This document shows positions 1,185 to 57,015 of a stretch of DNA of 64,000 nt, in pieces. The notes beneath the pieces were generated by a model that was given only the letters and a program-made list of their open reading frames with translations, had not been told where the DNA came from and did not search any database. This stretch comes from Kiritimatiellia bacterium (GTDB lineage: Bacteria > Verrucomicrobiota > Kiritimatiellia > RFP12 > UBA1067): contig JAPXSY010000004.1 of NCBI GenBank assembly GCA_033812795.1, positions 20,768 to 84,767 on the forward strand. Direction: 5' to 3'. Every line of letters starts with the position of its first letter. Position 1 is the first letter of the stretch. Made by a program: the position numbers and the translations under genes.

Positions 1185-3064
1185 TACCTCTCGTTGCTCT
1201 GCTCGCGGCGATCACGCCGCTCAGGATTATCCCGAACAAGATTGTCTATCCGGTTAACGAGTCCGGATTGATGACTGTCGTGTTGACAAACAAGGCGTCG
1301 GATCAAGCCACCTCGACCGTGAAAGTTGAAGAAATCTGGGGGATTGAAGGTGCTTCCCGCTGCATTCATGAGGCCGGAATATCCTTGGCCGGCCATGAGG
1401 GAAGGACGCTGAAAATTCCCTGGCCGGGGAGCCGGGAAAGGTACGGGCGCGAAATACGCGTGACGACCATTGTGGATGGGAACCCGACCGGGTCGCGCTC
1501 GGAATATTTCAATGTCATCGACGAGTGGTGGCGCGTGAACCAGGGGTGCGGGCTCAGTACGGCGCGCGGGGTGGTCACACCGGGCCTGAAGCACATGCTC
1601 GACCACTACGGTTACGGGACAAACGATTGGCATGACTGCGCAGGGCAGATGACGCATGTGGCGTGGGAACGCAACATGCCCGGCATGGGGCCGTTCATGG
1701 GGTATCACACGATGGAGACACGCTGGCAGATGCAGAAATCGTCTGTCGGCGGAAACTTCATCACGACAACGTATCCCGACGATATGAAATGGATCACGCC
1801 GAACGGTAGCGCCCCGCGATGGACCGGAAAGATCCGGAAGGACACGCGCATCTCGCATGACTGGGGATTCCATCATACCCGTTTCACAATCTACTTTATG
1901 GAGGGTCCATACGGCTTCGAACTCGCGCGTCAGAACCCAGAGTATATGTTGCGTAACGCGCGCGGACAGTACGAGGGGCGGTATATGGATGTGAACACCG
2001 ATCCGGTGAAGATTTCCGTGCAGGACAATCCGCAGCACTATCCCTGGACCTACGTCGAGCCGAATTTTTTCCGCGAAGACGCCTTCGACTGGGCGATTGA
2101 CGACCTCGTGACATGCGTCACGGCACTTGAAGAGGATGGCGTCTATTTCGACGGGCGTTACATGAAGAAACAGGGATACGACGCTTTCGGGAACAATCTG
2201 CAGAAAGTCTATGACCGGGACCTGTGTGTCGCGCGCAACATGGAAAAGACGAAGGCGAAGATCTTCGACGCGAATCCAAACGCCTACATCTGGTCCAACG
2301 GAGGCAGTGCGGCGGATCCCGAACTTGTGATCGCGAGTCATCCTCAGAGCGGGCTTCTAAATGAAATTCAGTGGCCGTTTCTCCTCAATCCGTCGCGTTC
2401 GGATCATTCGTACCGCGGTTTTCTGGAGTCGCTGCTGAAAACCCGTAATGCGACATGGTTCGGCGGCAAGTACGTGAAGACGCCATCGAAAATCATGCAT
2501 TGCGGCTATCTCGCGACCCGGTGGGATGCGAAGTTCATCTTGGAGCACCGAGAGAGTTTCGTGATGGCGCGGCATGTGATGTCCATAATCGCATCCGTCT
2601 GCGCGCATCCGTTTGCCAGCAGTGTCGTTTTCCGTCCTTTCAAGCAGATGATGACGCGTTACTCCGAGTTCTTCTGGCACGAGGATATGAACATCATGAA
2701 AGACGGTTACAAGAAGTTTGCAGCCGATTCTCTGCGCGAAATTTGGTACGATGATCTGATCTACATCAGAGAAACACCAAATTTCACCCAGTATCTGATT
2801 CATCTCGTGAATGCTCCCGAACAGGAGTTTTGCGATGATACGGTCATCGAAGAACCGCCCGAAGCCGATGATGTGGAAGTCTCGACGAAACTTTTCGCCC
2901 CCGGCGGAGTCAAAGCCTGGACGATTAAGCCTCACGGTTTTCTGTCCGACGTCTACGAACCCTCATGCATCGCCGTGACACCGAAGGAGGTGAAGGGCGA
3001 GACCGTTTTCGTGGTGCCGCCATTCAGGTATTACACGCTTCTCGTAATCAGGAAGTACAAGTAA
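1181..3064 (+). CDS. hypothetical protein (627 aa), N-terminal hydrophobic signal-like segment
   Basis: Long ORF translationally coupled to the upstream gene (ATGA overlap). N-terminus is MIPLVALLAAITPLRIIPNKIVYPVNES. No family recognised by eye. A truncated paralogous N-terminus lies at 3528. Confidence 0.7.
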   Translation: MIPLVALLAAITPLRIIPNKIVYPVNESGLMTVVLTNKASDQATSTVKVEEIWGIEGASRCIHEAGISLAGHEGRTLKIPWPGSRERYGREIRVTTIVDGNPTGSRSEYFNVIDEWWRVNQGCGLSTARGVVTPGLKHMLDHYGYGTNDWHDCAGQMTHVAWERNMPGMGPFMGYHTMETRWQMQKSSVGGNFITTTYPDDMKWITPNGSAPRWTGKIRKDTRISHDWGFHHTRFTIYFMEGPYGFELARQNPEYMLRNARGQYEGRYMDVNTDPVKISVQDNPQHYPWTYVEPNFFREDAFDWAIDDLVTCVTALEEDGVYFDGRYMKKQGYDAFGNNLQKVYDRDLCVARNMEKTKAKIFDANPNAYIWSNGGSAADPELVIASHPQSGLLNEIQWPFLLNPSRSDHSYRGFLESLLKTRNATWFGGKYVKTPSKIMHCGYLATRWDAKFILEHRESFVMARHVMSIIASVCAHPFASSVVFRPFKQMMTRYSEFFWHEDMNIMKDGYKKFAADSLREIWYDDLIYIRETPNFTQYLIHLVNAPEQEFCDDTVIEEPPEADDVEVSTKLFAPGGVKAWTIKPHGFLSDVYEPSCIAVTPKEVKGETVFVVPPFRYYTLLVIRKYK

Positions 3065-3497
3065 ACCTAAAAAGAGCAGTTGAACCTTCAACTCTCTTGG
3101 GTTTCATGGTTTCTGGGTTTCATGGTTTCATGGTTTCATCCAAATCGGGGTCGGGATCGCTATCGGTATCGGTATCGGTATCGGTATCGGGATCGGGAAC
3201 GTCGACCCGCGACCCGCGACATTCGACCCGCGACGATCGACAGGGACGCCCGCGTTTCCGGCACCGCAGGTCGCTCGTCGCGGGTCGACATATAAGGTCT
3301 GACGGGAGAAGCGGGCGTCCCTACCGGTTGGCGGACGCCTTAGTCCCGCATACGCACCGGTCTCCAAAACTCAGTCGATTGCGCTTGCGACGAAGGGCTG
3401 GGACGAAGAGTTCAAAAAGAGCGTCGGGCGCACCGCAAAACCCAATGTTTACGGGGCTTTGCTAGAATTCTACCCGTTCAACTGCTCCTTTTAGGGT
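3064..3497. repeat. inverted-repeat-flanked non-coding mosaic element built from tandem short words
   Basis: Terminal inverted repeats ACCTAAAAAGAGCAGTTGAAC (3065-3085) and GTTCAACTGCTCCTTTTAGGGT (3476-3497) have one mismatch and one extra G. Internal tandem words are GGTTTCAT-like (about 3099-3139), GGTATC/GGGATC (about 3146-3197) and CGACCCGCGA-like (about 3203-3236). 3064-3105 is 42/42 identical to 23026-23067, and 3211-3234 is a perfect inverted copy of 19770-19793. Confidence 0.8.
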
Positions 3498-3527
3498 AAA
3501 TGCCGGGGGAGTGGAGAAAAGATCGAA

Positions 3528-3773
3528 ATGAGTACGCGCCGCGTCATCCACGCGGCGATCACACTGCTCCGCATCGTTCCGGACAAAATCGTCTGGGTTA
3601 CCGAAAATTCGACACCTCAACGTCAACGGTCAGCGATTCGGATATACACCTTTTGGAGTATATTTTTCGATTTGACTCATTTCGTCCCCGGCGCACATAA
3701 TAAGTGCCAATCATGGGAATCGGTATCTTTTGGGCCACTACCCTATGGGAGGATAGTGGTTTTCTTTTTTTAA
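3528..3773 (+). pseudogene. truncated N-terminal fragment of a paralog of the 1181..3064 gene
   Basis: Translation AAITLLRIVPDKIVWVTENS matches AAITPLRIIPNKIVYPVNES at the start of the 1181 ORF, and the nucleotide run GCGGCGATCAC is shared. Similarity is lost after about 40 codons, and the rest of the 81-aa ORF is low-GC and Phe-rich. It ends directly at the tRNA. Confidence 0.45.
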
Positions 3774-3850
3774 TGGTGGGCGCTACAAGATTCGAACTTG
3801 TGACTTCTACCGTGTGAAAGTAGCGCTCTAACCAACTGAGCTAAGCGCCC
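3774..3850 (-). tRNA. tRNA-Val (anticodon CAC), CCA encoded
   Basis: The reverse complement folds as a 77-nt cloverleaf: GGGCGCT acceptor, GCTC/GAGC D stem, CTACT-TTCACAC-GGTAG anticodon arm (anticodon CAC), ACAAG-TTCGAAT-CTTGT T arm, then AGCGCCC-A-CCA. Confidence 0.93.
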
Positions 3851-3989
3851 CCGTTTGCTGAAATCAGGCGTATGTATAGCATGACGGACGCCCGCGTGTC
3901 AAGGCGCCTGCAGAAAAAAAACGGGATGTCAGAATGTCAGGAAACAAGTCGTGTCGAGGTGTCCGATTCTGAAACAGTGAAAGGGAACG

Positions 3990-4707: not shown

Positions 4708-5616
4708 TCAGGTCCGGTGTCCTGACGCGATCCACGGGGGCGTATCGGGCAACAGCGCCTCGAACGCCTCGATTAGCCCCTGTTCGTACGGTCCGGCGTA
4801 GGTGCCGTCCAAAAAGCGGGCATACGATTCATCGCAGAACCGCTCCCACGCGCGTTCCTCGTCACCCGGATTGATCGGGTAAAAGAGTACGCCGGCCCGG
4901 CGGGCCGCAGCGAGGTCGCCCTGCGCATCGCCGATCAACAAGACACGGCGCATATCGTATTTGTTGTCGGCGGCCAAGCGCAGATGCTGGTCTTTCGATC
5001 CCAGTTCTTGGCCTGCGATGAAATCCACGTAGCCGTCGATCGCGTGTTGACGCCACTCTTTGACCAGCGCCTCCTCTGGAGTTTGTGAAACCACGATGGC
5101 GTCACTGGATGCCCGGATCAGTTCCAGCGCTTTCACGGCCCAGCGGAATGGCGGCACCGGGCGCATATTGGCAGCGATTTCCGCGTTGATCGCCAAGCTC
5201 CACTCTAAGATGCGGCGCAGGGCAGGGTCGCCCGTACGGTCGACTTCCTGTTGCAGCGAGGGGTTGCCGAGCGGCAAACCGGAGTTGACATAGGCGCGCA
5301 GGGCCGTCGTCTCCGGCAGTGTCACCCCGCATTCGCTGATTCCCGGGTAGTCGGACAGCAGCTCAAAGACCCGCAACAGCGCGGGGAAGCGGTTGCTGCC
5401 GCGGGTTTTTGAGTGCAGGTTGACGAACTCCGCGCAGGCGCGGAGTTGCTCTTCGCAATCTTGCAGGTTCCAGAAGCGGATGATCAACGGATGGAAGTGA
5501 TCGCACTGCTTGACCCGCATGGTGTCGAACACGCAGCCGTCGGAATCGATTCCGACAAGCGAATCGTGGCGGGCCATAAGCTGTTTGAGAGCATCAAGCG
5601 TGAAAATGCGTTGCAT
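4708..5616 (-). CDS. HAD-superfamily hydrolase
   Basis: DxD motif VGIDSDGCVFDT near the N-terminus and LLIGDAQGDLAAARRAG (motif IV-like). 302-aa ORF. Confidence 0.7.
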   Translation of the reverse strand: MQRIFTLDALKQLMARHDSLVGIDSDGCVFDTMRVKQCDHFHPLIIRFWNLQDCEEQLRACAEFVNLHSKTRGSNRFPALLRVFELLSDYPGISECGVTLPETTALRAYVNSGLPLGNPSLQQEVDRTGDPALRRILEWSLAINAEIAANMRPVPPFRWAVKALELIRASSDAIVVSQTPEEALVKEWRQHAIDGYVDFIAGQELGSKDQHLRLAADNKYDMRRVLLIGDAQGDLAAARRAGVLFYPINPGDEERAWERFCDESYARFLDGTYAGPYEQGLIEAFEALLPDTPPWIASGHRT

Positions 5617-5624: not shown

Positions 5625-5688
5625 AGTGCATTAGTTCATTAGTGCATTAGTGCGTTAGTGCGTTAGTGCGTTAGTGCGTTAGTGCATT
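5625..5688. repeat. tandem octamer array AGTGCRTT x8
   Basis: Eight contiguous 8-nt units (agtgcatt, agttcatt, agtgcatt, agtgcgtt x4, agtgcatt) begin 9 nt upstream of the HAD gene start codon. The same word recurs at 19719-19758. Confidence 0.9.
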
Positions 5689-6056
5689 ACAACCTCACAG
5701 CCTTACTCACGGTAGGGACGGTTCGCCGAGCCGTCCGCAGACCATAACTATTCATTATTCGTTATTCACTTGCTATCGCTCCCGATAGCGATTCCGATAA
5801 TTCCTTGCCTATAAATTGACAGGATGACAGGATTTTCAGGATTGAACAACATCATGTTAATCATGGATTTCTTCCCGCCGAAGCGAAGCTGTCGGAAATC
5901 ATGTCCTAAACTTACTTCCAAGGTTTTTTCGCGGCAGAGCCGCGCGGCGGGCTAATTCCTGACTCAGCGCGTAGCACAGCAGGCTCGTCCCTTAATCGGA
6001 ACCGAAATCGGGACCGGTGTCGAGCCCCCCGTCCACGTTTCCGTGTAAGGACAACG

Positions 6057-6524
6057 TTAAACGTTGATCTGCAGCACGGCGATCAGGGAGAACACCATGG
6101 TGAAAATCGCCACGGTCTCGATGATGCCCAGCACGCCGAAATAGTTTGTCAATCCCTGTCCGGTCTCGGCCTGCGCGTCACACGCGGCAGCGGCGGCACG
6201 GCCCTGGAACAGTGCCGAGACGCCGATGCCCAGTCCTGCGAAAACGCCGAGGAGCAACAGCGGCAGACCGGCGGCGGCTTTGCCGAACATGATGAACATC
6301 AGGATCATGCCGTACAGTGTCTGAGTGATCGGCGCACCGACCAGCCCGAGCAGGATAAAGGGGGCCGGCTTGTTCTGCGCATAGCACTTTTTCCATGCGC
6401 CCACGGCGGCGATAGCAGCGTAGCCGGTGCCGAAGGACGAGCCGATTGCGCTCAATCCCAGACAGACGACGGCTCCTGCCACGCCTATAGCCTGATTCAT
6501 GTTTGCGACTGTTTCTGGATTCAT
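6057..6524 (-). CDS. atpK: V-type ATPase proteolipid subunit K
   Basis: 155 aa, four hydrophobic helices, Gly/Ala-rich, conserved carboxylate in GIIETVAIF. Last gene of the V-ATPase operon. GGAG lies 8 nt upstream of the ATG. Confidence 0.9.
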   Translation of the reverse strand: MNPETVANMNQAIGVAGAVVCLGLSAIGSSFGTGYAAIAAVGAWKKCYAQNKPAPFILLGLVGAPITQTLYGMILMFIMFGKAAAGLPLLLLGVFAGLGIGVSALFQGRAAAAACDAQAETGQGLTNYFGVLGIIETVAIFTMVFSLIAVLQINV

Positions 6525-6612
6525 TTTTTTCTCCGTTTGGTTTGAGGTTGTAAGGTTTTAAGACTGTGAGGGGGAAGGCTATAAGACCTGACAGCCTCAT
6601 AGCCTTAACTCC

Positions 6613-8448
6613 TTACAGCCTTTTGAACGGCTTGAAGGCATAGCCGGACCAGGTGATGCCTTTGTGGTTTGAGAACTCAAGGGTGTTGAGTCGGACAGCA
6701 TGCACCAAGATGCTGAGACCCGCCATCGCGAGGTTTAGCACATGGCCGGCAAGCAGGATCAGGATCATCGGCACAATTTTTGCCCACAGCGGTAATCCCA
6801 GGTTGACCGCCATGCTATTGAAGTTTTGCGCGACTTTGACCGAAGCCAGCCCCACGGCGAAAAGACGCACGTACGAGATGATGTCCCCGAGCGCACTCAC
6901 GATATTGAGCGGCAACATGCCGAGTTGAATGCCGTCGGTTTTCAGTTCATTACGCTTTAGCGTGAAGAGGAAAATCAAGGCTAGGGAGATACAAAAGACC
7001 GGATAAATCACGCGCGGGGCGGGAAAGATTCCGATGATCTGGCAGGTTATGCAGTACATGAACACGATCACACCGATCCAACCGACTTCCGCCAAGAACT
7101 TGGTGTCAGGGAAGAGGGCGGCGGCATTCCACGCGCGCGCCACAGAGAGGTGCACGACGCCTAAGGTGAAGCAGACCAGCATCGTGTTGTTGAGTCCGTT
7201 TTGCGGATCGCCGAGCCAAGCGCTGACCGGATTGGATAATATCGCAGGGGATGTTCCAAACCAAGTGTTGGACAAAAATCCCCAGACTATGGTGGCGCAC
7301 GCGAAGACGAACATCAAAATAAATGGGGAACGCGGCGCTTCCGGCAATTTTTTCCTGGCCCACAAGGTCAAGGCCATAATAATGGCGCCATAACCGCCGT
7401 CGCCGACCAGCATGGCGAAGAAAATGCTGAAGAAACAGAAGAAGGGAACGCTGATATCCGCTTCGTTATAGGCTGGCGAGATGTCGAGCCCCTTGAAGAG
7501 CGCGAGCACAGGCCGGAAGAGTCGCGGCGGGCGCAACAGGGTGGGGGGGGTGTCGTCCGGTCCGGGGTCGCGCAACAGCAGCCCCCACATATGTTTTACC
7601 GCATGTTCGCGCAGGGTCTGCTCCTGCTCCGCAGGCATCCAGCCGGTGATCCACGCCACATGCCCCTGCGCTTCCATAGCCTCGGCTGCGGCCGCGAACT
7701 CGCAGGCTTCGTAAAGGCGTTTGATATCCTGCCGGACTTCAGCAAGTTTTGGTTTTGCGGATGCAAGCAATGCGCCGATGGCATCCGCACGCTCGGCAAG
7801 CGCGGCACGGCAAGCGAGCAGTTCGGAGAGCGGCACTTCCGGCAATGCGATTTCTTCGCATGTCTTCGGCCATTCTCCGTCGCCGATCATGACGCCGTAG
7901 GTTGAGGTGCGGTCAGCGCTTAGTATGTGAACCGAACACGTTTCGGATGACGCAGGGGCGGGCTGTCCGGAAAGGCAACTAAACAGGCGGACTTGAATAC
8001 CCTGCGCGGCCAGTTGCTGCGGGAGCGTGACATCAAATTCGCCGAAGTGCTGGTAGAGGTTGATCTTGGTGTCTAGGCGCGCCACCTCATTGACCAGCGT
8101 TTGCCGGGTGTCGGCCAGCGAATTGACGGTTTTGACGATATCTGCAGCATGACCTTCAATCTTTTCAGGGAGAGCGGTTTCCATGAGGTCCGCCAGCATT
8201 TTGCGGTTATCGCTTGCGGCGTAGTGTCCGCCGGTAACAGGCGTTACGGGCAAGCCTTTGGCGGCATTCTGGATATAGCGCAATGCCTGTCGGGCGGCCT
8301 CGAACGTATTGTGCGCCGCACGGAAATCGGCGGATTCGGCGGACTTCAGCGTCACATGCATGCCGCCGAAATCGCGCAGACTTTCCAGTGCTTCATCGCG
8401 TTCCGCTGCCACGCAAAGCAGGGTCACATGTTTCATCGGCACGATCAA
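6613..8448 (-). CDS. atpI: V-type ATPase subunit I (a-subunit, stator/proton channel)
   Basis: 611 aa with a soluble N-terminal half followed by multiple TM helices, positioned between D and K. Stop overlaps the D gene region (8445-8448). Confidence 0.88.
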   Translation of the reverse strand: MIVPMKHVTLLCVAAERDEALESLRDFGGMHVTLKSAESADFRAAHNTFEAARQALRYIQNAAKGLPVTPVTGGHYAASDNRKMLADLMETALPEKIEGHAADIVKTVNSLADTRQTLVNEVARLDTKINLYQHFGEFDVTLPQQLAAQGIQVRLFSCLSGQPAPASSETCSVHILSADRTSTYGVMIGDGEWPKTCEEIALPEVPLSELLACRAALAERADAIGALLASAKPKLAEVRQDIKRLYEACEFAAAAEAMEAQGHVAWITGWMPAEQEQTLREHAVKHMWGLLLRDPGPDDTPPTLLRPPRLFRPVLALFKGLDISPAYNEADISVPFFCFFSIFFAMLVGDGGYGAIIMALTLWARKKLPEAPRSPFILMFVFACATIVWGFLSNTWFGTSPAILSNPVSAWLGDPQNGLNNTMLVCFTLGVVHLSVARAWNAAALFPDTKFLAEVGWIGVIVFMYCITCQIIGIFPAPRVIYPVFCISLALIFLFTLKRNELKTDGIQLGMLPLNIVSALGDIISYVRLFAVGLASVKVAQNFNSMAVNLGLPLWAKIVPMILILLAGHVLNLAMAGLSILVHAVRLNTLEFSNHKGITWSGYAFKPFKRL

Positions 8449-9059
8449 GCCGCTTCCTCCTTGTCAGCTTTGGCGCTACGGCCTTTGGCGATCTTGCCGC
8501 GGGTTACGGATGCGGTCTGCTCATCGCCGATTGCGATCTTGATGATCCGGATGTTCTCTTTGCACTCCGGAATCTTGACTTTCTCGAAGAGGTTCACGCG
8601 CTGTGAGGTGGTGTTGAGTTCTTCCACGATCAGCTTGCGCTGTTCTTTGAGCACGGCGCGTTCGGCCTTCAACTCCCAAATTCCCTTAATCGCTTTGATC
8701 GCGTCATCATACCAGGCTGGCGTGGCAAACAAATCCATTTCGCCAACCTTCACGTCAATGCCTTCATACACCGGTATCATGATTCCCGCGATGTTGCTGG
8801 CACCGGTGCGGATGCTCTGAAAGACCAGCAGCTCCCGCAACGGCGCGATGTCGGCGGCGAACAGCTTAATCCAGCCGGTAAGAGCCTTTTTGGCTGTGTC
8901 CTCGCGCTGCTCCACATCGGCGATGCGCGTGTCGACCGAGGCGATCTCCGCCTGCAACTGCTGCTTCTTGAGCTGCAGCATCGGCAGAAAACGCTGGAAG
9001 CGCTTGAGCGCGTCGTTCTGCGCCTTCAGTTCAGTCTTGGTGTATTTGATTTTGGCCAT
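8445..9059 (-). CDS. atpD: V-type ATPase subunit D
   Basis: MAKIKYTKTELKAQNDALKRFQRFLPMLQLKKQQLQ is a typical subunit D coiled-coil N-terminus. 204 aa, follows subunit B. Confidence 0.9.
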   Translation of the reverse strand: MAKIKYTKTELKAQNDALKRFQRFLPMLQLKKQQLQAEIASVDTRIADVEQREDTAKKALTGWIKLFAADIAPLRELLVFQSIRTGASNIAGIMIPVYEGIDVKVGEMDLFATPAWYDDAIKAIKGIWELKAERAVLKEQRKLIVEELNTTSQRVNLFEKVKIPECKENIRIIKIAIGDEQTASVTRGKIAKGRSAKADKEEAA

Positions 9060-9120
9060 ATGAGGAGGCTGTGAGGGGTTAAGGGGTTAAGGTTGTGAGG
9101 TGTTAAGGGGTTGAGGCTGT
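9060..9120 (-). repeat. intercistronic spacer made of GGTTAAGG/GTGAGG words (CCTTAACC/CCTCAC in the mRNA)
   Basis: The whole 61-nt atpB-atpD spacer is tandem degenerate words. The plus strand contains only 2 C, so the transcript has only 2 G. No Shine-Dalgarno precedes atpD; CCTCC is there instead. Related words occur at 5689-5712, 6540-6612 and 17010-17062. Confidence 0.8.
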
Positions 9121-10416
9121 CTACTTCTCCGGCCAGAACTTGTCAGTGAGTTTGCTGGGTATGCCGATCTCGCCTTTGTTGAAGCAGTCGGCCAGGATCT
9201 TCCAGCCCAAGTCCAGCGCCTTTTCTAGCGGGATGTTGACGGACAGGTCCATCATCTCTGTTTCAAAGCGCTCGCCGTATTTGAGCAGTTTGTTATCCCA
9301 GTCGCTCATGCGGAAGCCCATGGACTGCTTTTCTTGGGTCTCTTTGAACGAGGCATAGAGTTTGATCATGGCGTCCATGATCGTGCGGTGGTCTTCGCGC
9401 GTGTCTTTATTGACCTGCTGCTTGAGGCGGCTCAGCGAGCCGAAGGGCTCGATGCGTCCGTCACGCAGGTAGAACTGCCCCTCGGTGATGTAGCCGGTGT
9501 TGTCCGGCACCGGGTGGGTGACGTCGTCACCGGGCATGGTCGTGGCCGCGAGGATGGTGATGGAACCCGCGCCCTCGAAGTCGACCGCCTTCTCATACCG
9601 CGCGGCGAGTTGCGAGTAAAGATCGCCCGGGTAACCGCGGTTGGAGGGGATCTGCTCCATGGTGATGGCGATCTCCTTGAGCGCATCGGCGAAGTTGGTC
9701 ATGTCGGTCAGCAGCACCAGCACCTTTTTGCCCTGCAAGGCAAACTGCTCGGCTGCGGCCAGCGCGATGTCCGGCACCAGCGTACACTCGACGATCGGGT
9801 CGGCGGCGGTATGCACGAACATGACGGTGCGCGAGAGCGCGCCGCTCTCATCCAGCGTGTCGCGGAAGGCGAGGTAGTCATCGTGCTTGAGCCCCATGCC
9901 GCCGAGGATGATGATGTCGACCTCGGCTTGCAAGGCGATACGCGCGAGCAGGGCGTTGTAGGGTTCGCCGGCGCGGGCGAAGATCGGCAGCTTTTGCGAT
10001 TCAACCAGCGAGTTGAAGACATCGATCATCGGGATATTGGTGCGCACCATGTTACGCGGGATGATGCGCTTGGCCGGGTTGACCGAAGGTGTGCCGACAT
10101 CGATCAGATTGTCGGTCAGCGCGGGGCCGCCGTCGCGCGGCACGGCGCTGCCGGTGAAGGCGCGGCCGAGCAGCGCATCCGAAAACGGGACGCGCATAGG
10201 CCTGCCCAGAAAGCGCACCTTGCCGTCGGTCGCGATACCGCGCGCCCCGGCGAAGACTTGCAGGGTGACGGTGTCGCCATCAAGCTTGATGACCTGCGCC
10301 AACGACGTGCCGCTCCGCGAGGAGACTTCGGCGAGTTCGCGGTATTTTACCCCCCGTGCGCGCAGCGTGATGACGCTACCCGACAGGTTGTCAATCATAT
10401 GGTAAATTTTATGCAT
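9121..10416 (-). CDS. atpB: V-type ATPase subunit B
   Basis: 431 aa of the non-catalytic A/B family (…[31 protein letters not shown]…[17 protein letters not shown]). Overlaps the A gene by 8 nt. Confidence 0.93.
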
Positions 10417-12160: not shown

Positions 12161-12708
12161 GATTCGGTTTGCGGAATAGCCTCAGCGTTGTCCGCCGGCT
12201 TGATTTCCGCCAGTTGCTCGAAATGCTCCGTCCCGGCCTTGGTATCCCATTCCGCCTGCCGGGCTAGGATGCGGAGTTTTATTGCGTATGCGAAGACCGC
12301 GTTTTTGCACAGGGGGTCCGGCCCTTGCAACTCATCCACGATTGTCCAGCATATCCGGTCAAGCGCCTTCTCGCGTTGCAGGGGATCGGAACTCTGAAAA
12401 GCTTCTTCCACCAGATTCTCGATCCAGACTTCGACCCTGTGGCTGTAGCGCAGCCAAGGCTCTTCATCCGCACCAGAGCGCTGCGCGCGCTTATAGGCGA
12501 CCGCATTACGCAAGATGGTCATGTGGTCCTGCCATTTACGTGCGAAAGGATGATCCGGGGTCTCGCCTTTCAGCAGGCTTTCGACAACCTGCACATCTGC
12601 TGCGTCAAGCTGTTCGCGGCACATTCCAACGAACCCAGTTTGTGTAATACCGGGTTCAGTGCCTAAATTCAGCATCGGCAGAGAAGAAAGAAGGTAAATC
12701 AGGCTCAT
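12157..12708 (-). CDS. DUF2764-family protein (V-ATPase-operon associated, possible C-subunit analogue)
   Basis: 183 aa starting MSLIYLLSSLPMLNLG, sitting between E and A exactly as in Bacteroides/Chlamydia-type V-ATPase operons. 4-nt overlaps on both sides. Confidence 0.75.
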   Translation of the reverse strand: MSLIYLLSSLPMLNLGTEPGITQTGFVGMCREQLDAADVQVVESLLKGETPDHPFARKWQDHMTILRNAVAYKRAQRSGADEEPWLRYSHRVEVWIENLVEEAFQSSDPLQREKALDRICWTIVDELQGPDPLCKNAVFAYAIKLRILARQAEWDTKAGTEHFEQLAEIKPADNAEAIPQTES

Positions 12709-17009: not shown

Positions 17010-17062
17010 AAGTATAGGGGCGTTTAAGGGTTTAAGATTGAGGTGCCGGAAACGAGGTATGA

Positions 17063-18202: not shown

Positions 18203-18205
18203 GAT

Positions 18206-43026: not shown

Positions 43027-43028
43027 AT

Positions 43029-47048: not shown

Positions 47049-47262
47049 GCCGTGATTTGAATAACCGGCGGTTGCCCTTTCCGGTGCCCGGTTTTAGGTT
47101 TACGAGGCTTGCCAAGACTTACCGTGTTTTGCGATACTAACCCCGTACAGAGTTGAGTAGCCGGTAATGGGCGAGGGTGGTACGGCTACCGGCCGTTGTA
47201 GGCGACAGGGGTTAGGCGGTTTCAACGATGTCGGTAACGGATAATACGGAAAGGAAGTGCGC

Positions 47263-50931: not shown

Positions 50932-51055
50932 GGACATGACGAACCGCCCTTTTTTTGCTTTAATTAAGAAATGAATCGGAGAAGGACGGGAAATCCGTGC
51001 TTCAGGGGGCATGGATACCCGGGCGCAGCCATGCAACGATCAAAGGAGTAAGACG

Positions 51056-52408
51056 ATGGAGACCATGACATTCAATCGGAGGACGTTCCTCAAATCCACG
51101 GCCGCCGCAGCCGCCGTGTTGCCGACCTTCAACATCCTGAGCCAAGAGGCAAAGACCATTGGCCCCGATGATGATCAGGTCAACGCGGCCGTGATCGGCT
51201 ACGGCGCCGAGGGTGAGATTTTGGCGGACGCCGCGATGAAGATCCCCGGTGTGCGTTTCAAGGCGGTCTGCGACATCTGGGACTACCGCCGCAAGATGGC
51301 GCGCGGCCGCATGCGCGCGCTGGGTCACGATGTCAAGGTCTACGAAGATTACCGTGAGATGCTTGACAAAGAGGACAAGAACATCGACTGCGTGATCGTC
51401 GCGACCCCGGACTGGATGCATGCGGAACACAGCGTCTACTGCATGGAGAAGGGCAAGCACGTCTATTGCGAAAAGGAGATGTCCAACCGTCTGGAGAAGG
51501 CCAAGGAGATGGTTCTGGGTCAGCGCCGCACCGGCAAGATCTTCCAGATCGGCCACCAGCGCCGCTCCAATCCGCGCTACATCCACGCGATCAACCGCGT
51601 GATCCGCGAGGCCAACATGCTGGGCCGCGTGACCCACGCCTACGGCCAGTGGAACCGTTCGGTCGCTCCCTTCCTGACCGTGCGCGACCGCCTCAACATC
51701 CCGACCGAGACGCTCCAGAAGTACGGCTACGAGAACATGGAGCAGTTCCTCAACTGGCGCTGGTTCGATAAGTACGGCGGCGGCCCGATGGTCGACCTTG
51801 GCTCGCACCAGATCGACCTCTTCTTCTGGGTCTGGGACTGCGTGCCGGTCACGGTCACCGCAATCGGCGGCAATGACTACTACAACCGCCAGATGAACGA
51901 CAACGTGATGGCGATTTACGAATTTAAGACCAAGGAGGGCGTGATCAACCGCGCCTACTATCAGGTGCTGACGACCTCCAGCCGCGGCGGCTTTTACGAG
52001 CAGTTCATGGGCGAGAACGGCTCGCTCACCATCTCCGAGATCGCGGCCCGCGGTAATGCGGTGCAGCGCGAAGTGCGCGACGGCGTGCCGGACTGGGAGC
52101 AGTTCGCCAAGAAGGGTCTGGTGCTGCCGGTCAGGAAGCCGGTGGCCGCGGCTGTCACCTCCAACGCGGCGCTCGACGTGCGCGTGACCGCCGAGGCCGA
52201 TGGCTGGCCGTTGCCGGTCGATCTGCTCAAGCCGGCGCACATGCCGCATCTGGAAAACTTCTTCCTCGCCGTGCGCCGTAACAAGCCCGAGCTTCTGACC
52301 TGCCCGGTCGAATTGGCGTACGAGTCGGCAGTGGCGGTGCTGGCGGCCAACCGTTCGGTCGCTGAAGGGAAGACCATTACCTTCAAGCCGGAAGATTTCA
52401 AAGTTTAA
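51056..52408 (+). CDS. Tat-exported Gfo/Idh/MocA-family oxidoreductase
   Basis: METMTFNRRTFLKSTAAAAAVLPTF contains a perfect twin-arginine motif (RRTFLK). Rossmann segment AAVIGYGAEGE and YCEKEM (EKP-like motif). AAAGGAG lies 7 nt upstream of the ATG at 51056. Confidence 0.9.
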   Translation: METMTFNRRTFLKSTAAAAAVLPTFNILSQEAKTIGPDDDQVNAAVIGYGAEGEILADAAMKIPGVRFKAVCDIWDYRRKMARGRMRALGHDVKVYEDYREMLDKEDKNIDCVIVATPDWMHAEHSVYCMEKGKHVYCEKEMSNRLEKAKEMVLGQRRTGKIFQIGHQRRSNPRYIHAINRVIREANMLGRVTHAYGQWNRSVAPFLTVRDRLNIPTETLQKYGYENMEQFLNWRWFDKYGGGPMVDLGSHQIDLFFWVWDCVPVTVTAIGGNDYYNRQMNDNVMAIYEFKTKEGVINRAYYQVLTTSSRGGFYEQFMGENGSLTISEIAARGNAVQREVRDGVPDWEQFAKKGLVLPVRKPVAAAVTSNAALDVRVTAEADGWPLPVDLLKPAHMPHLENFFLAVRRNKPELLTCPVELAYESAVAVLAANRSVAEGKTITFKPEDFKV

Positions 52409-52417
52409 GCAGCGGAC

Positions 52418-52454
52418 AGGTCCGACAGGTCTCCACCGGTCTGACAGGTCGGAC
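52418..52454 (+). repeat. RGGTCKGAC nonamer array upstream of the cytochrome gene
   Basis: aggtccgac, aggtctccac, cggtctgac, aggtcggac in tandem, ending 17 nt before the ATG at 52472. The same word array occurs at 56188-56232. Confidence 0.8.
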
Positions 52455-52471
52455 GGACAGGAAGTCATCGA

Positions 52472-55201
52472 ATGAAAAAGTTTCTCTCTATCATACTGGC
52501 CTGCGCGATCGTCCCGGCGTTTGCGAAGGTCGAGTCGCACTGGGACGGCGGGCGTAACACGCCGGTGCACCGTCTCAACCTGAATGACGAGTTCGGCGAT
52601 GTGATTGTGCCCGGCACGCCCAACGCCCTGCCGTTGAGCACGCGTCAGACCTGCGGTCAGTGCCATGATTACGACACCATCGCGTCCGGCTGGCATTTCA
52701 ATATGTCCTGCACAAATGCGGTGCACGGCCGTAGCGGCCAGCCTTGGTTCCTGATCGATCCGCTCAGCGGGTCGCAGATCCCGATGAGCCTGCGCGGCTG
52801 GCAGGGTACGCATACGCCCGGCCAGCTCGGCATGACCGACTGGGAGTGGGTCTACGCCTTTGGCCGTCACATGCCGGGCGGCGACCGCGCTGATCCCAAG
52901 GATCTCTACGCCGAAGGCGGGCCGCGCGCCCGCTGGGACGTGTCGGGGCCCGTTGAAATCAACTGTTTCGCCTGCCACAGCCGGAACGCGGAATACGACC
53001 ATAGCGAGTGGGTGCGCCTGATTCTGCGCCAGAACTTCCGCTGGGCCGCCACCGGCGCCCTCGGGCTGGGCGACATCCGCGGTATGGGTTCGCGTGTGGC
53101 GGACTATTGGGGCGTGCTGCGCGGCCTGAACCGGGACGATTCGGTCTTTGCCGTGCCGCCGCATGTGGTCTATGATATGCGGCAGTTCGATGCCAAGAAC
53201 CGCACGGTGTTACAGGTTGGTGCGCCGCGCAATGAAAACTGCTTGAGTTGCCACTCGACGTCGCAGGCCGGCATGCCGCATAAAGACATTGACGGCGATG
53301 TGCATCTGCGCGCCGGCATGAGCTGCGCCGACTGCCACGGCAATGGCGAAAACCACGCCATCGCGCGCGGTTACGAAGGCGACACCACCGGCAAGATGGA
53401 CAAGACCCGCGCCAGCGCGAGTTGTGTGGGTTGCCACGTGGGTTCGGATTGCGCGCGCGCCGGTCGTCACGGCGCGCCTGCGCCGCAGCATGTCGGCATT
53501 CCGGTCAGTCACTTCAGGGCTCTGAGCTGCACGACTTGTCACTCCGGCGTGACCGAGGACGGGGCGCTGGCGGAGGTGCGCACCTCGCGCGCCAATCGTA
53601 TGGGTGTCTACGGGCGCGCCCGCTGGGCCACGCCGCAGCCGTTCATTCTGGAGCCGGTCTTCGTGCGCAACGAGACGGGCAAAATCGAGCCGCGCCGCAT
53701 GGTCTGGCCTGCCTTCTGGGGTGTCCGCGCTGAAAACGATGCCGCGTCGATCTCGCCGCTCCGTCCCGAAACCGTGACCGAGGCTTGCACGGGCCTGCTG
53801 GACGTGCGCGAGCAGATCGGGTTGGTTCTGGGGGCACTTGCGACCGACCCCAGCATTCCGGGAATCCCGGTGCTGGCGATCGACGGCAAGCTCTTCAAGC
53901 GGCATCTGGACGGTTATGCCGAGCCGGCCGGCGACACGACGCAGGCGGACGGGTTCTATTACCAGACCGCGACCAACCTGATCGCCGTCATTCCGCCCTT
54001 TGATCCAAACGCTGACACTGAGAAGATGAATGAAGCGCAGCTTGAGGCGCGTCAGAACAACGAGAAGCGGCTGGGGAACCTCTTGCAGACGCTTGATGCC
54101 GCGCCGATGGCTGTGACCAACGGCTTTGGCGCGGTGGTTTATGGCGACAAGCTCTTCTTCCGCGGCGGCGATGGCGAAGCCATGATCAGCACCAACGCGC
54201 CGGCCAAGGTCGATGCACCGGTCGTAGGCTGGTACAAAGACGGTGCCTTCACCGCGCTGGTTTCCGAGTACGCCGCCAAGAATGTCAAGGAACTGGGCGG
54301 CAGCGCGTGCTCGATCACCGAAACGATGGTCGCCGCCGTGCTCAAGCGGCTTACCGAAGTTGGACATGCCCGCGCGGTTTACGTTGCGCACGGTCAGGTC
54401 TGGGAGTTGAAGGCCGACGGCAGCCTGAGTGCCCAGGTCGCGAAAGTCGCGGAACCGGTCTCGTGGGCGGTGGGGCATGACGTGCGTCCCGCGCGCATGG
54501 CCCGCGGCGCGCGGCCGTCCAAGTGCAACGACTGCCATACGGTGGGGTCCACGTTTTTCTTCACCAAAGTCGCGTCGACGGGTCCGTTGCTGACTGCGCG
54601 TAAGCTGGTCAAGATGCAGCACGATTTCATGGGTCTCAGCGGCAGCTACAACAAGGTCTTCGGTACTACCTTCCTGATGCGTCCGTTCTTTAAGGTCTTC
54701 CTCTGGACGGTCTTTGTGATCTTGATGCTGGTCACGGTGGCCTTTGCGGCAGCGGCGGTGCCGGCGGTGCTCGACAAGGGCGGCATCCCGTACGGCAAGC
54801 CGTCCGAACAGTTGATGACGATGATCGACCGTGGTGCGGCGATCACTTTGGCACTTGCCAGTGCTTACCTGTGCCTCTCCGGATTGCTGGGCTGGTTCTT
54901 CCATCTGCTGGTCGGCTATATCTTGGTCTTCCACATGGTGGGCGGTGGGATCTTCGCGGCCTGCCTGCTGGTGCTGATCTGGTTGCGCGGCGGGCGTCGT
55001 ATCGCGAATCCCCGGCGTAACATGCTTTGGATGATCGTCATGCTGCTGGGTGTCGGCGTGGTCTTTACGGCGGTGGCACCGATGATGACCTGGTTCGGCG
55101 AGGGCTGGCAGTGGCTGATGCTCTGGTGCCACCGCCTCGTGACGATGGCGTTCCTGGCCGTTGCGGTCTGGATGCTGCTCACCGGCGGGCGCAAGGAGTA
55201 G
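52472..55201 (+). CDS. heptaheme c-type cytochrome fused to a C-terminal multi-TM module
   Basis: Sec signal MKKFLSIILACAIVPAFA. Seven CxxCH motifs (CGQCH, CFACH, CLSCH, CADCH, CVGCH, CTTCH, CNDCH). The last about 190 aa form 4-5 TM helices with conserved-looking His (FFHLLVGYILVFHMVGG, WCHRLV). Confidence 0.88.
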   Translation: MKKFLSIILACAIVPAFAKVESHWDGGRNTPVHRLNLNDEFGDVIVPGTPNALPLSTRQTCGQCHDYDTIASGWHFNMSCTNAVHGRSGQPWFLIDPLSGSQIPMSLRGWQGTHTPGQLGMTDWEWVYAFGRHMPGGDRADPKDLYAEGGPRARWDVSGPVEINCFACHSRNAEYDHSEWVRLILRQNFRWAATGALGLGDIRGMGSRVADYWGVLRGLNRDDSVFAVPPHVVYDMRQFDAKNRTVLQVGAPRNENCLSCHSTSQAGMPHKDIDGDVHLRAGMSCADCHGNGENHAIARGYEGDTTGKMDKTRASASCVGCHVGSDCARAGRHGAPAPQHVGIPVSHFRALSCTTCHSGVTEDGALAEVRTSRANRMGVYGRARWATPQPFILEPVFVRNETGKIEPRRMVWPAFWGVRAENDAASISPLRPETVTEACTGLLDVREQIGLVLGALATDPSIPGIPVLAIDGKLFKRHLDGYAEPAGDTTQADGFYYQTATNLIAVIPPFDPNADTEKMNEAQLEARQNNEKRLGNLLQTLDAAPMAVTNGFGAVVYGDKLFFRGGDGEAMISTNAPAKVDAPVVGWYKDGAFTALVSEYAAKNVKELGGSACSITETMVAAVLKRLTEVGHARAVYVAHGQVWELKADGSLSAQVAKVAEPVSWAVGHDVRPARMARGARPSKCNDCHTVGSTFFFTKVASTGPLLTARKLVKMQHDFMGLSGSYNKVFGTTFLMRPFFKVFLWTVFVILMLVTVAFAAAAVPAVLDKGGIPYGKPSEQLMTMIDRGAAITLALASAYLCLSGLLGWFFHLLVGYILVFHMVGGGIFAACLLVLIWLRGGRRIANPRRNMLWMIVMLLGVGVVFTAVAPMMTWFGEGWQWLMLWCHRLVTMAFLAVAVWMLLTGGRKE

Positions 55202-55216
55202 CGCGGCATTTGTTCT

Positions 55217-56170
55217 ATGACATCCCAGGTCCACAGGTTTGAGCACCAAGCCATGTCGACGGTGTTCGAGCTGTTGATCGCGACAGAAGATCGGCAGCTT
55301 GCCCAAAGCGCGGCTTATGCGGTGTTCAAAAAGGTGGACGGTCTGGAGGAGCTGATCAGCCGCTTCCTCGACGTGAGCGAGGTGGCGCTGATCAGCCGCC
55401 TGAAGCCGGGTGAGACCTTCCGCGTGGCGCCGGAGCTGATGGAGTTGCTGCTGACCGCCACGCGCGTCTGCGCAGCCACGCAGGGCGCGTTTGATGTGAC
55501 GGTCGGCCCGGTGATGGACGCCCTGCGCGAGGTCAAGCACCGCTGGCGCGCGTTGACGCCGCAAGAGCGCGAAAGCGCCTTGGCCGCGTGCGGCATGAAC
55601 CGGCTGGTTATCGACACCGAAAACCTGCTGATCGCGGTGCAGCCCGACCGCATGGGACGCGCCTCGCCGCTGGAGCTGGATTTCGGCGCCATCGGTAAGG
55701 GCTACGCGCTGGATGTGGCATGCCGCATGTTGACGGAGGACTGGGACTTTGCCGACTTCCTGATGCACAGCGGCACCAGCACCGTGATCGCGCGCGGGAC
55801 GATGGGCGACGGTCAGCCGGGCTGGCCGGTGAGCGTGGGCGGCGATTGGCGCGAACGCGCCGGTTTGCACCATGTGCGGCTTAGCGAGGGCGCGATCAGC
55901 GGGTCGGGCTTTGATGTGAAAGGCGCGCACGTTGTGGACGTGCGTCGCGGCGTCGCGGCATCGCGGCATCCTGCCGCATGGTCGTACGCCCCGGCGGCGG
56001 CGGTGTCGGATGCGCTTTCGACCGCCTGCCTCGGACTGGGATGGAGAGAGATTTGCGCCGCATGCGCGGCGTTGGAAGGATGCGGTGCTTTGGTGGCGCG
56101 GGCGCAGCCCGTGTGGATGGACCGGTTGAGAAGTCCGGTGAGGCAATATGGTGCCTTTCCCGCCGTTTAA
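55217..56170 (+). CDS. apbE: FAD:protein FMN transferase (ApbE family), no signal peptide evident
   Basis: AMSTVFELLIA…FDVTVGP…DFGAIGKGYALD…SGSGF are typical ApbE motifs. The N-terminus MTSQVHRFEHQ has no hydrophobic or lipobox segment. Confidence 0.85.
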   Translation: MTSQVHRFEHQAMSTVFELLIATEDRQLAQSAAYAVFKKVDGLEELISRFLDVSEVALISRLKPGETFRVAPELMELLLTATRVCAATQGAFDVTVGPVMDALREVKHRWRALTPQERESALAACGMNRLVIDTENLLIAVQPDRMGRASPLELDFGAIGKGYALDVACRMLTEDWDFADFLMHSGTSTVIARGTMGDGQPGWPVSVGGDWRERAGLHHVRLSEGAISGSGFDVKGAHVVDVRRGVAASRHPAAWSYAPAAAVSDALSTACLGLGWREICAACAALEGCGALVARAQPVWMDRLRSPVRQYGAFPAV

Positions 56171-56187
56171 TGAAGTGAACGCTTTTC

Positions 56188-56232
56188 GGGTCTGACGGGT
56201 CGGACAGGTCTGACAGGTTGGACGGATCGGAC
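56188..56232 (+). repeat. RGGTCKGAC nonamer array x5 upstream of the discoidin gene
   Basis: gggtctgac, gggtcggac, aggtctgac, aggttggac, ggatcggac as contiguous 9-mers, ending 29 nt before the ATG at 56262. Confidence 0.85.
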
Positions 56233-56261
56233 AAATACGAACAGAGGAACAAGGAGGACAC

Positions 56262-56930
56262 ATGAAGCACACAGGAATGATGTTGGCGGCTGTTGTGGCG
56301 GGCCTTGCCGTGGTGGCGGGCGCGCAGGACGGAGCCAAGGTGCAGTTGAAGATCGAACTGCCGAAACCGCAGTTCACGGGTACGCCCAAAGACATTCGCT
56401 CGCCGAACCTCGAGCCGGCCCGCGGCGGCAAGCCGCGTCCGCCGATTGATGTTCCGGCTGGCGCTGACAAGGTGCTCTCGAAAGACTGCAAGGTCACGTC
56501 GAGCGATCCAGAGCCGATCATCGGCGAGCTGTCGTTCATCACGGACGGCGACAAAGAGCATGACGCCGCGACGTATGTCGAACTCGGCCCCGGCACGCAG
56601 TGGGTGCAGGTCGATCTGGGCAAGGAGAAGGAAGTCTACGCCGCGTGCGTGTGGCACTACCACGGCGAGGCGCGCGTCTATCGTGACGTGGTCTGCCAGA
56701 TTTCCAATGATCCTGACTTCATCGACGGCGTCGTGACGGTCTTCAACAACGACCATGACAATTCCTCGAAGCTGGGTGAAGGCAAAGAGAAAGAGTATAT
56801 CGAGACCAACGAGGGCCGTCCTTTCGCCGTCAGTGGCGTGAAGGGCCGTTACGTCCGCTTCTACAGCAAGGGCAACACCTCGAACGAGATGAACCACTAC
56901 ACGGAGATTGAAGTGTACGGCAAGCCCTGA
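56262..56930 (+). CDS. secreted discoidin (F5/8 type C) domain protein
   Basis: Signal MKHTGMMLAAVVAGLAVVAGAQ. …TYVELGPGTQWVQVDLGKEKEVYAACVWHYH…GRYVRFYSKGNTSNEMNHYTEIEVYG is the discoidin pattern. AAGGAGG lies 5 nt upstream. Confidence 0.85.
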   Translation: MKHTGMMLAAVVAGLAVVAGAQDGAKVQLKIELPKPQFTGTPKDIRSPNLEPARGGKPRPPIDVPAGADKVLSKDCKVTSSDPEPIIGELSFITDGDKEHDAATYVELGPGTQWVQVDLGKEKEVYAACVWHYHGEARVYRDVVCQISNDPDFIDGVVTVFNNDHDNSSKLGEGKEKEYIETNEGRPFAVSGVKGRYVRFYSKGNTSNEMNHYTEIEVYGKP

Positions 56931-56938
56931 GCGGGAGT

Positions 56939-57015
56939 AGGAGTTGGGATTTAGGATTTAGGATTTAGGATTTAGGATTTAGGAGTTAGGAGTTAGGATT
57001 TAGGATTTAGGAGTT
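56939..57015. repeat. tandem heptamer array AGGAKTT x11
   Basis: aggagtt, gggattt, aggattt x4, aggagtt x2, aggattt x2, aggagtt as contiguous 7-mers starting 9 nt after the discoidin stop codon. A related TTTAGGATTCAGGAGG forms the RBS region of trx (57158-57173). Confidence 0.9.

Follow-up and report, generated by a model that had tools for sequence, protein, structure and literature searches.

Arrays of tandemly repeated 6–9 nt words fill a number of the intergenic spacers in a 64 kb stretch of DNA from an uncultured Kiritimatiellia bacterium (contig JAPXSY010000004.1, positions 20 768–84 767; this whole stretch is referred to below as the window and all coordinates are counted from its first letter). 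The impression of a shared vocabulary probably arises from two sources: the modules of a mobile element resembling a MITE (a miniature transposable element with inverted repeats), and stand-alone tandem repeats that are prone to slippage. The pattern as a whole is probably explained by a lineage-specific MITE-like element with a repeat-built body together with class-wide long-unit tandem repeats that arose by slippage and were kept where they are least harmful. The non-autonomous element would have reached dozens of sites, both in this organism and among its near relatives. The stand-alone arrays would have started from local seed sequences and gained or lost units by replication slippage, persisting in untranslated transcribed gaps, mainly the stretch from stop codon to terminator and the gaps between operon genes. 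The observations from which this account was built are inverted repeats, a target duplication, multicopy dispersal, a modular architecture, gain and loss of whole units and a bias to the 3' side of genes.

Analysis with Tandem Repeats Finder (TRF) confirmed that the short-unit repeats are real: arrays with 6–9 nt units were recovered at nearly all of the positions cited in the original prediction, which had been made from the letters alone. Two of its assignments were weaker than claimed, since 17010–17062 holds about two loose units and gave no TRF row, and 5689–5712 comprises two to three words. The window yielded 27 TRF rows covering 927 bp, compared with 0–4 rows and 0–74 bp in 30 third-order Markov simulations; in a 50 kb control stretch of E. 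coli K-12, TRF reported two rows, each of them within a gene. Genes in the window were called with a codon-usage model. Intergenic DNA makes up 11.5% of the window and holds 738 of the 927 array bases, which corresponds to 100 bp per kb between genes and 3.3 bp per kb within them (∼30-fold). Arrays were present in 11 of the 36 spacers, with none at 24–33 kb or 36–52 kb; their reality and intergenic location were thus upheld, but not their presence throughout the window. The same words did recur tens of kilobases apart, in both orientations and in varied combinations, as had been proposed.

The GGTTTCWK, GGKATC and CGACCCGCGA arrays and some of the CCTCACAG arrays are modules of the MITE-like element and together account for approximately 383 of the 738 intergenic array bases in the window (52%). 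The element ends in 20 nt terminal inverted repeats, CCTAAAARGAGCAGTTGAAC. Copy 1 (3066–3495, + strand, 430 bp) is bounded by inverted repeats at 3066–3085 (CCTAAAAAGAGCAGTTGAAC) and 3476–3495 (GTTCAACTGCTCCTTTTAGG) that differ by one mismatch, and it is flanked by a target duplication, GTAAA, at 3061–3065 and 3496–3500, the left copy of which includes the TAA stop codon (3062–3064) of gene 1181–3064. Its body consists, in order, of the leader palindrome, five GGTTTCWK units (3099–3139; TRF 3100–3139, 5.0 copies), ATCCAAATC, eight GGKATC units (3146–3199; TRF 3151–3196), a CGACCCGCGA hairpin module (3200–3290; TRF 3203–3242) and a unique tail. The predicted fold of the hairpin at 3195–3295 has an energy of −47.5 kcal/mol. 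The leader contains a 16 bp palindrome, AGTTGAACCTTCAACT, with a 2 nt non-complementary centre, which occurs in two exact copies in the window, where 0.16 matches with up to three mismatches would be expected by chance; the start of the leader recurs in inverted orientation at 3476–3497.

Copy 2 (23028 to ∼23285, + strand) has a left inverted repeat at 23028–23047 and no recognizable right repeat. Its interior contains two to three rounds of GGTTTCWK modules (TRF 23061–23100, 5.0 copies; 23171–23223, 6.9 copies) and GGKATC modules (TRF 23100–23129, 23155–23172 and 23229–23262), and it is bracketed by exact 29 nt GC-rich hairpin units at 22995–23023 and 23322–23350. The segments 3061–3166 and 23023–23128 are 88% identical over 106 nt, including the non-repetitive 36 nt leader.

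Fragments of the same family were found elsewhere in the window. At 34236–34375 (+ strand) a GGKATC array (34243–34290; TRF 34243–34283) and its reverse complement (34344–34375; TRF 34344–34365) form a long inverted repeat with a predicted fold of −62.7 kcal/mol (z = −2.5), and the same module was found within a full element elsewhere. A coding reading of GGKATC as (IG)n/(DP)n, given by a 58-codon open reading frame at 34219–34392 (+ strand), was judged to be spurious because the coding score is low (8.5) and the segment matches the non-coding element module. A fragment of the CGACCCGCGA module lies at 19764–19793 (− strand), where 19770–19793 is a 24 nt inverted match, 100% complementary, to 3211–3234 of copy 1. 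A mosaic of word runs without assigned strand at 5689–5850 is composed of the CCTCACAG-type words at 5689–5712, a GC-rich hairpin, three TTATTCR units (5749–5768; 2.9 copies by TRF), a GGKATC-like reverse complement (5767–5800) and a unit with two to three copies of GACAGGAT (5806–5842; 2.1 copies by TRF). Of these, 5767–5800 and part of 5689–5712 also match internal modules of the element family, and the GACAGGAT unit recurs beside element ends at other loci.

For a census of the family, a 20 nt piece of the leader, CAGTTGAACCTTCAACTCTC, was sought in public metagenome contigs, which gave at least 116 stretches with at least 127 matches; 40 of the matches listed lie within 300 nt of a locus end, and at least 60 different upstream flanks were counted in the first 88 leader instances listed. 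In all copies the left part reads CCTAAAAAGAGCAGTTGAAC-CTTCAACTCTCTTTGGTTTC followed by (GGTTTCWR)n with n between 2 and ∼25, after which a linker, ATCCAAATCGG, leads into (GGKATC)n. The tail that follows differs between copies: some have a hairpin module of (CGACCCGCGA)n, others a run of AACCAC(AGCCTCAC)n, and others again a unique hairpin. The element closes with ...GTTCAACTGCTCCTTTTAGG, an inverted copy of the left end. From 172 such ends in the window and in related loci, 33 left-to-right pairs were obtained, i.e. 33 complete elements among the matches listed, with lengths of 243–695 bp. The interiors consist only of tandem arrays and hairpins and hold no transposase gene. A perfect 5 bp target duplication was present in eight of the 33 complete elements, the window copy (GTAAA) included, and nearly all other intact element ends adjoin NTNAN pentamers. 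Element ends were absent from 1.1 Mb of sequence from other Kiritimatiellia species, and the family is therefore specific to this lineage.

The insertion sites account for the proximity of element arrays to stop codons. Among the matches listed there were 74 unique insertion sites. At 47 of these the element lies downstream of a gene that is read in the direction of the leader end, and the distance to the stop codon is at most 20 nt at 15 of the 47 and at most 2 nt at six; the remaining 27 lie upstream of a gene start, none of them closer than 75 nt. The duplicated target is a 5 bp NTNAN sequence the core of which, T-N-A, matches stop codons, and this core, together with the loss of insertions near starts, would bring the element arrays up against stop codons. 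At other loci the element often directly adjoins AGTGCATT or AGGATTT arrays (...TTAG joined to CCTAAAAAG), which supply many NTNAN targets. Two features make the element unusual for bacteria, namely a body made almost wholly of variable microsatellite arrays and a tendency to land on stop codons.

The AGTGCRTT, AGGAKTT, RGGTCKGAC and GGTTAAGG/GTGAGG arrays are not bounded by element ends, and a survey of 75 loci (1.18 Mb) from other Kiritimatiellia placed such arrays in a wider setting. Arrays covered 30 bp per kb between genes and 2.7 bp per kb within genes (11-fold), with 7 nt units most frequent (45 arrays), followed by 8 nt (27), 9 nt (19) and 6 nt (10), and the repeat words were mostly species-specific across the class. 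Stand-alone arrays of 7–9 nt units are thus a property of the class Kiritimatiellia and are not restricted to the window. Their positions relative to genes are non-random and biased to the 3' side: in co-directional spacers 45 of 61 arrays lie nearer to the upstream stop than to the downstream start (p = 2.6 × 10^-4), convergent spacers hold 27 arrays where 14 are expected and divergent spacers nine where 17.5 are expected (chi-square p = 3 × 10^-4), and the median distance from an array to the upstream stop is 30 nt. Most arrays would on this evidence be selfish or neutral DNA that is tolerated where it does least harm.

Copy numbers change by whole units, both between near-identical strains and between related species, which bears out slippage as suggested in the original prediction; the comparison between strains that it had proposed also gave differences. 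The AGTGCRTT array has eight units in the window and in L221 and seven in L222, the rest of the 1.2 kb being identical. The GGTTTCWK array of copy 1 has five units in the window and eight at the same site in other strains, the internal arrays of copy 2 occur as two alleles among four contigs that encode identical UvrA, and at another insertion site GGTTTCWR is present in two or eight units with flanks that are 99.7% identical. AGGAKTT ×11 and RGGTCKGAC ×5 were invariant in ten contigs and the arrays at 19.7 kb in four. In comparisons of species, the 11 AGGAKTT units of the window correspond to ∼4–6 in four related species, and RGGTCKGAC at 56189–56233 has five units compared with four in L016 and L036, a clean 9 nt difference. 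A classical variable-number tandem repeat was observed in the same clade: in L213–L215, strains of a related species that are 99.9% identical, a 30 nt hairpin unit, GGCATGCCGTGGCGCCATCGACACCCTTGC, lies downstream of uvrA (5336 to ∼5590; UvrA 84% identical) in two, three or at least four copies.

Interspecies differences were also seen in the V-type ATPase (V-ATPase) operon, in which the 61 nt spacer between the subunit B and D genes (9060–9120, − strand) consists wholly of CCUCACAG and CCUUAACC words on the sense strand (TRF 9066–9120, the GGTTAAGG/GTGAGG array, 5.4 copies with a 24 nt higher-order unit) and is predicted to be unstructured as RNA (minimum free energy 0). In relatives this spacer is either 20 nt long, with one copy of each word, or 427 nt long, with a higher-order repeat of the same words; in a third form a small Avd-like gene is inserted and is flanked by inverted word arrays. 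As one relative runs the operon with the 20 nt spacer, a minimal spacer suffices, and the arrays have been added to it. The inserted gene was seen in L211 (475–843) and L212 (250–618), in which V-ATPase D is 98% identical; it lies between B and D and encodes a 122-residue protein of the 23S-rRNA-intervening-sequence/Avd-like type (PF05635). The flanking inverted word runs, of CTGTGAGG and CCTCACAG, may be the ends of a second mobile unit.

The stand-alone arrays all lie in transcribed gaps, mainly just past stop codons or between genes of one operon. The AGTGCRTT array (5625–5689, − strand; eight units, 8.1 copies with 92% matches by TRF) ends 9 nt before the ATG of the HAD-like gene 4708–5616, and its sense strand reads (AAUGCACU)n. 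The word is quasi-palindromic, and RNA of the + strand folds with −30.2 kcal/mol (z = −4.3) compared with −12.2 kcal/mol (z = −0.4) for the sense strand. An AGTGCRTT-type array of 4.5 AGTKCATT units (19719–19754, + strand) occupies the divergent spacer between an outer-membrane efflux gene and uvrA. The V-ATPase I–K spacer (6525–6612, − strand; weak GGTTAAGG/GTGAGG row at 6541–6622) contains inverted word runs that form a 14 bp hairpin, then a G-poor tail and a GGAG ribosome-binding site, with a predicted fold of −23.3 kcal/mol (z = −2.6). At 17010–17062 (− strand), in the spacer that separates the gene for the membrane-fusion protein from that for the AcrB-type efflux protein, there are about two loose words, GTTTAAG/TTGAGG, and no true array.

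Two degenerate RGGTCKGAC arrays, both with 75% matches, fill gaps of 63 and 91 nt within one gene cluster. The first (GGTCYGACA, 4.3 copies; 52415–52454, + strand) lies in the 63 nt spacer upstream of a multihaem cytochrome gene and the second (GGTCKGACA, 5.0 copies; 56189–56233, + strand) upstream of a discoidin-domain gene, where it is identical in ten assemblies. The AGGAKTT array (56938–57012, + strand; 10.7 copies), which has a Shine–Dalgarno-like AGGAG core, lies in a 3' untranslated region and begins 7 nt past the stop codon; it is followed by an intrinsic-terminator-like hairpin with a U-rich run (57052–57098, + strand) that is conserved across species and is predicted to fold with −26.3 kcal/mol in the window and −27.4 kcal/mol, with U7, in L014. 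The description of arrays as abutting start and stop codons was therefore apt: in addition to the AGTGCRTT and AGGAKTT arrays, the array at 9060–9120 fills the entire gap from stop to ATG, and the element beginning at 3066 lies on a stop codon.

Several observations weigh against an explanation by transposition and slippage alone. As regards the element, 25 of the 33 complete copies lack a perfect target duplication, for which recombination between copies or chimeric short-read assembly could be the cause. No autonomous transposase with matching ends was found, in that no left-to-right pair 0.9–3.5 kb apart occurs in 888 kb of element-bearing loci. The CC-starting ends and the 5 bp duplication might point to a partner from an IS1380- or IS5-like family. 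Nor was an empty insertion site found: all six contigs with the neighbouring gene variant carry the element, and farther relatives are not syntenic. Homologues of gene 1181–3064 fall into two groups, one with at least 90% identity, in which every member has the element, and one with no more than 65% identity, and the UvrA relatives at 84% identity are not syntenic with the window. As regards the stand-alone arrays, their units contain more G than C on the sense strand (0.31 G versus 0.18 C; p = 0.002), and AGGAG-type heptamers follow stop codons again in distant Kiritimatiellia (58% PolA identity). The hairpin-plus-G-poor-tail arrangement before subunit K is kept in L208 with different word copies (−33.9 kcal/mol). 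The 9-mer spacer 52409–52471 has a constant copy number in four related species and is, judged by eye, ∼86–97% identical, compared with 75–79% at the fourfold-degenerate sites of the neighbouring gene. One further contig, L224 (JGI 3300009715), carries the same gene and element allele as the window and a different sequence past the right inverted repeat (TTCAA, not GTAAA), which reflects either a recombination event involving two copies of the element or a chimeric join made in assembly.

Some of these observations would be accommodated by functional control at the RNA level, in which the arrays, as unstructured or hairpin-forming spacers, set relative translation, mRNA stability or termination within operons, with copy number as a dial and with AGGAG-type heptamers as extra ribosome-binding or ribosome-retention sites. 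The gaps in which the arrays lie are transcribed and belong to housekeeping operons (V-ATPase, RND efflux and cytochrome/ApbE), the array units are G-rich on the sense strand, the 9-mer leaders appear to be more conserved than fourfold-degenerate sites, and the hairpin-plus-tail layout is conserved before subunit K, which is needed at high stoichiometry. Sense-strand arrays are also less structured than length-matched intergenic controls, with a median of −0.10 versus −0.148 kcal/mol per nt (p = 0.006), and 39% of them are essentially unstructured compared with 17% of the controls. The antisense strands, however, are less structured still (p = 0.001); low RNA structure is consequently a by-product of low complexity, and selection for unstructured sense RNA was rejected. 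The earlier suggestion of structure-free transcript segments thus holds in that many arrays would give nearly structure-free RNA, but not in the sense of selection for this property. The stop triplets in 7–8 nt units were likewise rejected as translational insulators, as they show no strand bias (25 of 61 sense and 23 of 61 antisense). The same V-ATPase operon has a B–D spacer of 20 nt, of 427 nt or interrupted by a gene in relatives, words and copy numbers vary freely between species, and the study of the Xanthomonas and Nostoc heptamers discussed below reported no regulatory role (PMC4692102). RNA-level control as a general explanation is therefore considered unlikely.

A broader version, a class-wide cis-acting code of 7–9 nt words in the untranslated parts of operons, in which copy number tunes translation, termination or decay and a mobile element spreads word cassettes to the 3' ends of genes, appears improbable. 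In a minority of cases, such as the hairpin-plus-tail spacer before subunit K and the 9-mer leaders, arrays may have taken on a role in mRNA stability or translation; such signs of co-option are not evidence for a general code. A reading of (UAGGAUU)11 as a CsrA sponge or TRAP-like site was set aside; its copy number ranges from ∼4 to 11 between species. A search of the window with Rfam and ARAGORN gave a tRNA-Val as the sole match.

It is distinctly improbable that the words are DNA-binding sites of a lineage-specific protein, whether a nucleoid-associated protein, a regulator or the transposase of the element. Several words do have palindromic cores (TGCA in AGTGCATT, GTCNGAC, GATC, CATG and TTAA), and the two exact copies of the leader palindrome exceed chance expectation. 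Units of 7–9 nt are nevertheless out of helical phase, orthologous positions carry different words in different species, no candidate protein emerged, and the arrays are enriched downstream of genes rather than in the divergent spacers that bear promoters.

A role of the arrays in forming G-quadruplexes or other non-B structures, as for GGGAATC and GGGGAYT of Xanthomonas and Nostoc, is very improbable. The GGGATC variant of GGKATC resembles GGGAATC, and the placement rules are those of the published quadruplex-forming repeats (PMC4692102). A search for quadruplexes found five canonical motifs in the window, and of these just one, a four-tract motif at 23085–23111, overlaps an array, which speaks against the G-quadruplex-forming segments that had been proposed. 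GGTATC and GCTATC units break up the GGKATC runs, and most words (AGTGCRTT, AGGAKTT, GGTTTCWK and CCTCACAG) are without GGG tracts.

The possibility that the arrays are artefacts of repeat collapse or expansion in short-read metagenome assembly is practically negligible: contigs do often end in elements, some loci share one flank and not the other (possible chimeric joins) and a run of Ns lies within the expanded array of one relative, but the arrays flanking gene 56262–56930 (56.2–57.0 kb) agree base for base in ten JGI and ENA assemblies that are independent of one another and were produced with different assemblers, the same alleles return in independent samples, related species carry orthologous arrays (L016 on a contig of 1.97 Mb among them), and arrays of 64–75 nt are probably shorter than typical short reads, an estimate made without reference to the read lengths themselves. 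The arrays thus survived the check for assembly artefacts that had been named at the outset.

Transposition and slippage are both known mechanisms, and together they account for a striking pattern that the original prediction had regarded as undescribed. That view was not sustained, since about half of the array bases are explained by the MITE-like element and the stand-alone arrays match the heptamers of Xanthomonas and Nostoc (PMC4692102). The Xanthomonas GGGAATC and Nostoc GGGGAYT heptamers are intergenic, at a mean distance of 28 nt from the gene upstream, and are rare between divergent genes; they are transcribed, their copy number varies between species and their function is unknown (Rehm et al., 2015; PMC4692102). 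The same study cites tandem heptanucleotides in Calothrix (Mazel, 1990) as well as an overall surplus of heptamer repeats, which was ascribed to polymerase slippage (Mrazek, 2007). The arrays described here share with the Xanthomonas and Nostoc heptamers the head-to-tail arrangement of ∼7 nt units, the intergenic location near the upstream stop in co-directional and convergent spacers with few in divergent ones, a G-rich strand that is usually the sense strand, variable copy number at conserved positions and the occurrence of some inverted-repeat pairs. They differ in that each genome has many unrelated 6–9 nt words where the published cases have a single dominant heptamer rich in G, most of the words are without G tracts and unable to form quadruplexes (the published repeats have quadruplex-capable G-tract units, with a preference for four of them), the host belongs to the Planctomycetes–Verrucomicrobia–Chlamydiae (PVC) group and about half of the array bases are inside a transposable element.

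The short tandemly repeated repetitive (STRR) sequences of heterocystous cyanobacteria comprise several heptamer families per genome, arranged in tandem in non-coding DNA at many loci. They are the closest precedent for a vocabulary of words. Their unit sequences and host lineage are different, periods of 6, 8 and 9 nt also occur here, and a link to a mobile element bounded by inverted repeats is not known to form part of the description of STRR sequences.

The defining features of MITEs are terminal inverted repeats, target duplication, small size and the absence of a transposase (Delihas, 2011; PMC3184786). The element resembles bacterial MITEs in its terminal inverted repeats, target duplication, length (243–695 bp), many intergenic copies and strong predicted hairpins. 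In pneumococcal BOX elements, which have the structure boxA-boxB(n)-boxC, the number of internal repeats is variable. The modular body with variable internal repeat number is shared with BOX of Streptococcus pneumoniae, but the internal repeats are 6–10 nt long here and form several consecutive arrays of two to ∼25 units instead of one 45 nt box. Unlike in MITEs and BOX, alternative tails are shuffled between copies, insertions are concentrated on or next to stop codons and no partner insertion sequence was identified.

Mycobacterial interspersed repetitive units (MIRUs) are 40–100 bp in length and often have small reading frames. Like MIRUs, the tandem repeats fill operon gaps, touch stop and start codons (cf. 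9060–9120) and vary in copy number between strains; their units, by contrast, are 7–9 nt and non-coding. The arrays are also distinct from CRISPR, as had been stated, being contiguous and without unique spacers (CRISPR has 23–47 nt repeats and spacers of similar length). With repetitive extragenic palindromic (REP) sequences and bacterial interspersed mosaic elements (BIMEs) they share transcribed intergenic mosaics of short motifs that run in both orientations and as a rule follow genes, and GC-rich REP-like hairpins occur here too. The arrays themselves are nevertheless, in agreement with the original prediction, not REP or BIME sequences: they are direct 6–9 nt tandem repeats and not 20–40 nt imperfect palindromes in alternating orientation, and the REP-like hairpins are separate and not part of the arrays. 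Contingency loci likewise change their unit number by slippage; promoters and 5' coding regions of surface or restriction genes are not where the present arrays lie, most of them being downstream of stop codons, the flanking genes encode V-ATPase, RND efflux, UvrA, PolA-region and redox functions, and stand-alone arrays vary by 0–1 unit between near-identical strains. No paper that connects Kiritimatiellia with tandem repeats came up in a full-text literature search, and the present results extend stop-proximal long-unit repeats from Xanthomonas and Nostoc to this class of the PVC group.

The element is one likely reason for the fragmented assembly of these genomes. The arrays could serve as strain markers in anaerobic digesters, and the findings are also useful for assembly and annotation in this little-studied class. 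Biological interest is moderate unless regulatory tuning is shown; if some of the arrays do tune operon expression, the natural copy-number series would be ready-made test material.

The genes that flank arrays are housekeeping genes: the V-ATPase operon (6057–13292), a resistance–nodulation–division (RND) efflux operon (13923–19669), uvrA, a cluster encoding oxidoreductase, multihaem cytochrome, ApbE and discoidin-domain proteins, and thioredoxin and polA. Exact matches to window proteins came from anaerobic-digester metagenomes, and PolA of the window matched only metagenome-assembled genomes of Kiritimatiellia and other members of the PVC group, the best at 90% protein identity.

The block 51011–56930 (oxidoreductase/cytochrome/ApbE/discoidin) shows 93–98% protein identity to L016 and L036, with PolA at just 80%; it lies downstream of polA in L016 and L036 and upstream in the window, and these sequence comparisons suggest a rearrangement or exchange of the block between related species. 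Gene 1181–3064 (+ strand) encodes a 627-residue protein without a Pfam match, and the end of the upstream gene overlaps its start by 4 nt. Several of the nearest non-identical homologues of the protein (58–65% identity) have 919–946 residues and are perhaps fusions with the upstream gene. A short reading frame past element copy 1 (3529–3678, + strand) repeats the first ∼20 codons of gene 1181–3064 (44 nt, 77%; cf. 1204–1247) and looks like a partial duplicate of its 5' end. The tRNA-Val gene (anticodon CAC; 3774–3850, − strand) is situated ∼280 nt past the right end of the same copy.

GC-rich REP-like hairpin units of the type GGACGCCTCGGGGAGGCGTCC were noted at 22995–23023, 23322–23350 and 42337–42358, and also at 22973–23018, 5713–5745 and 3231–3333; similar hairpins (TTCCGCGC...GCGCGGAA) adjoin arrays and element ends at other loci. 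An exact 28 nt direct repeat (50096–50123 and 50157–50184, 61 nt apart) lies near the 3' end of the reading frame 47257–50202.

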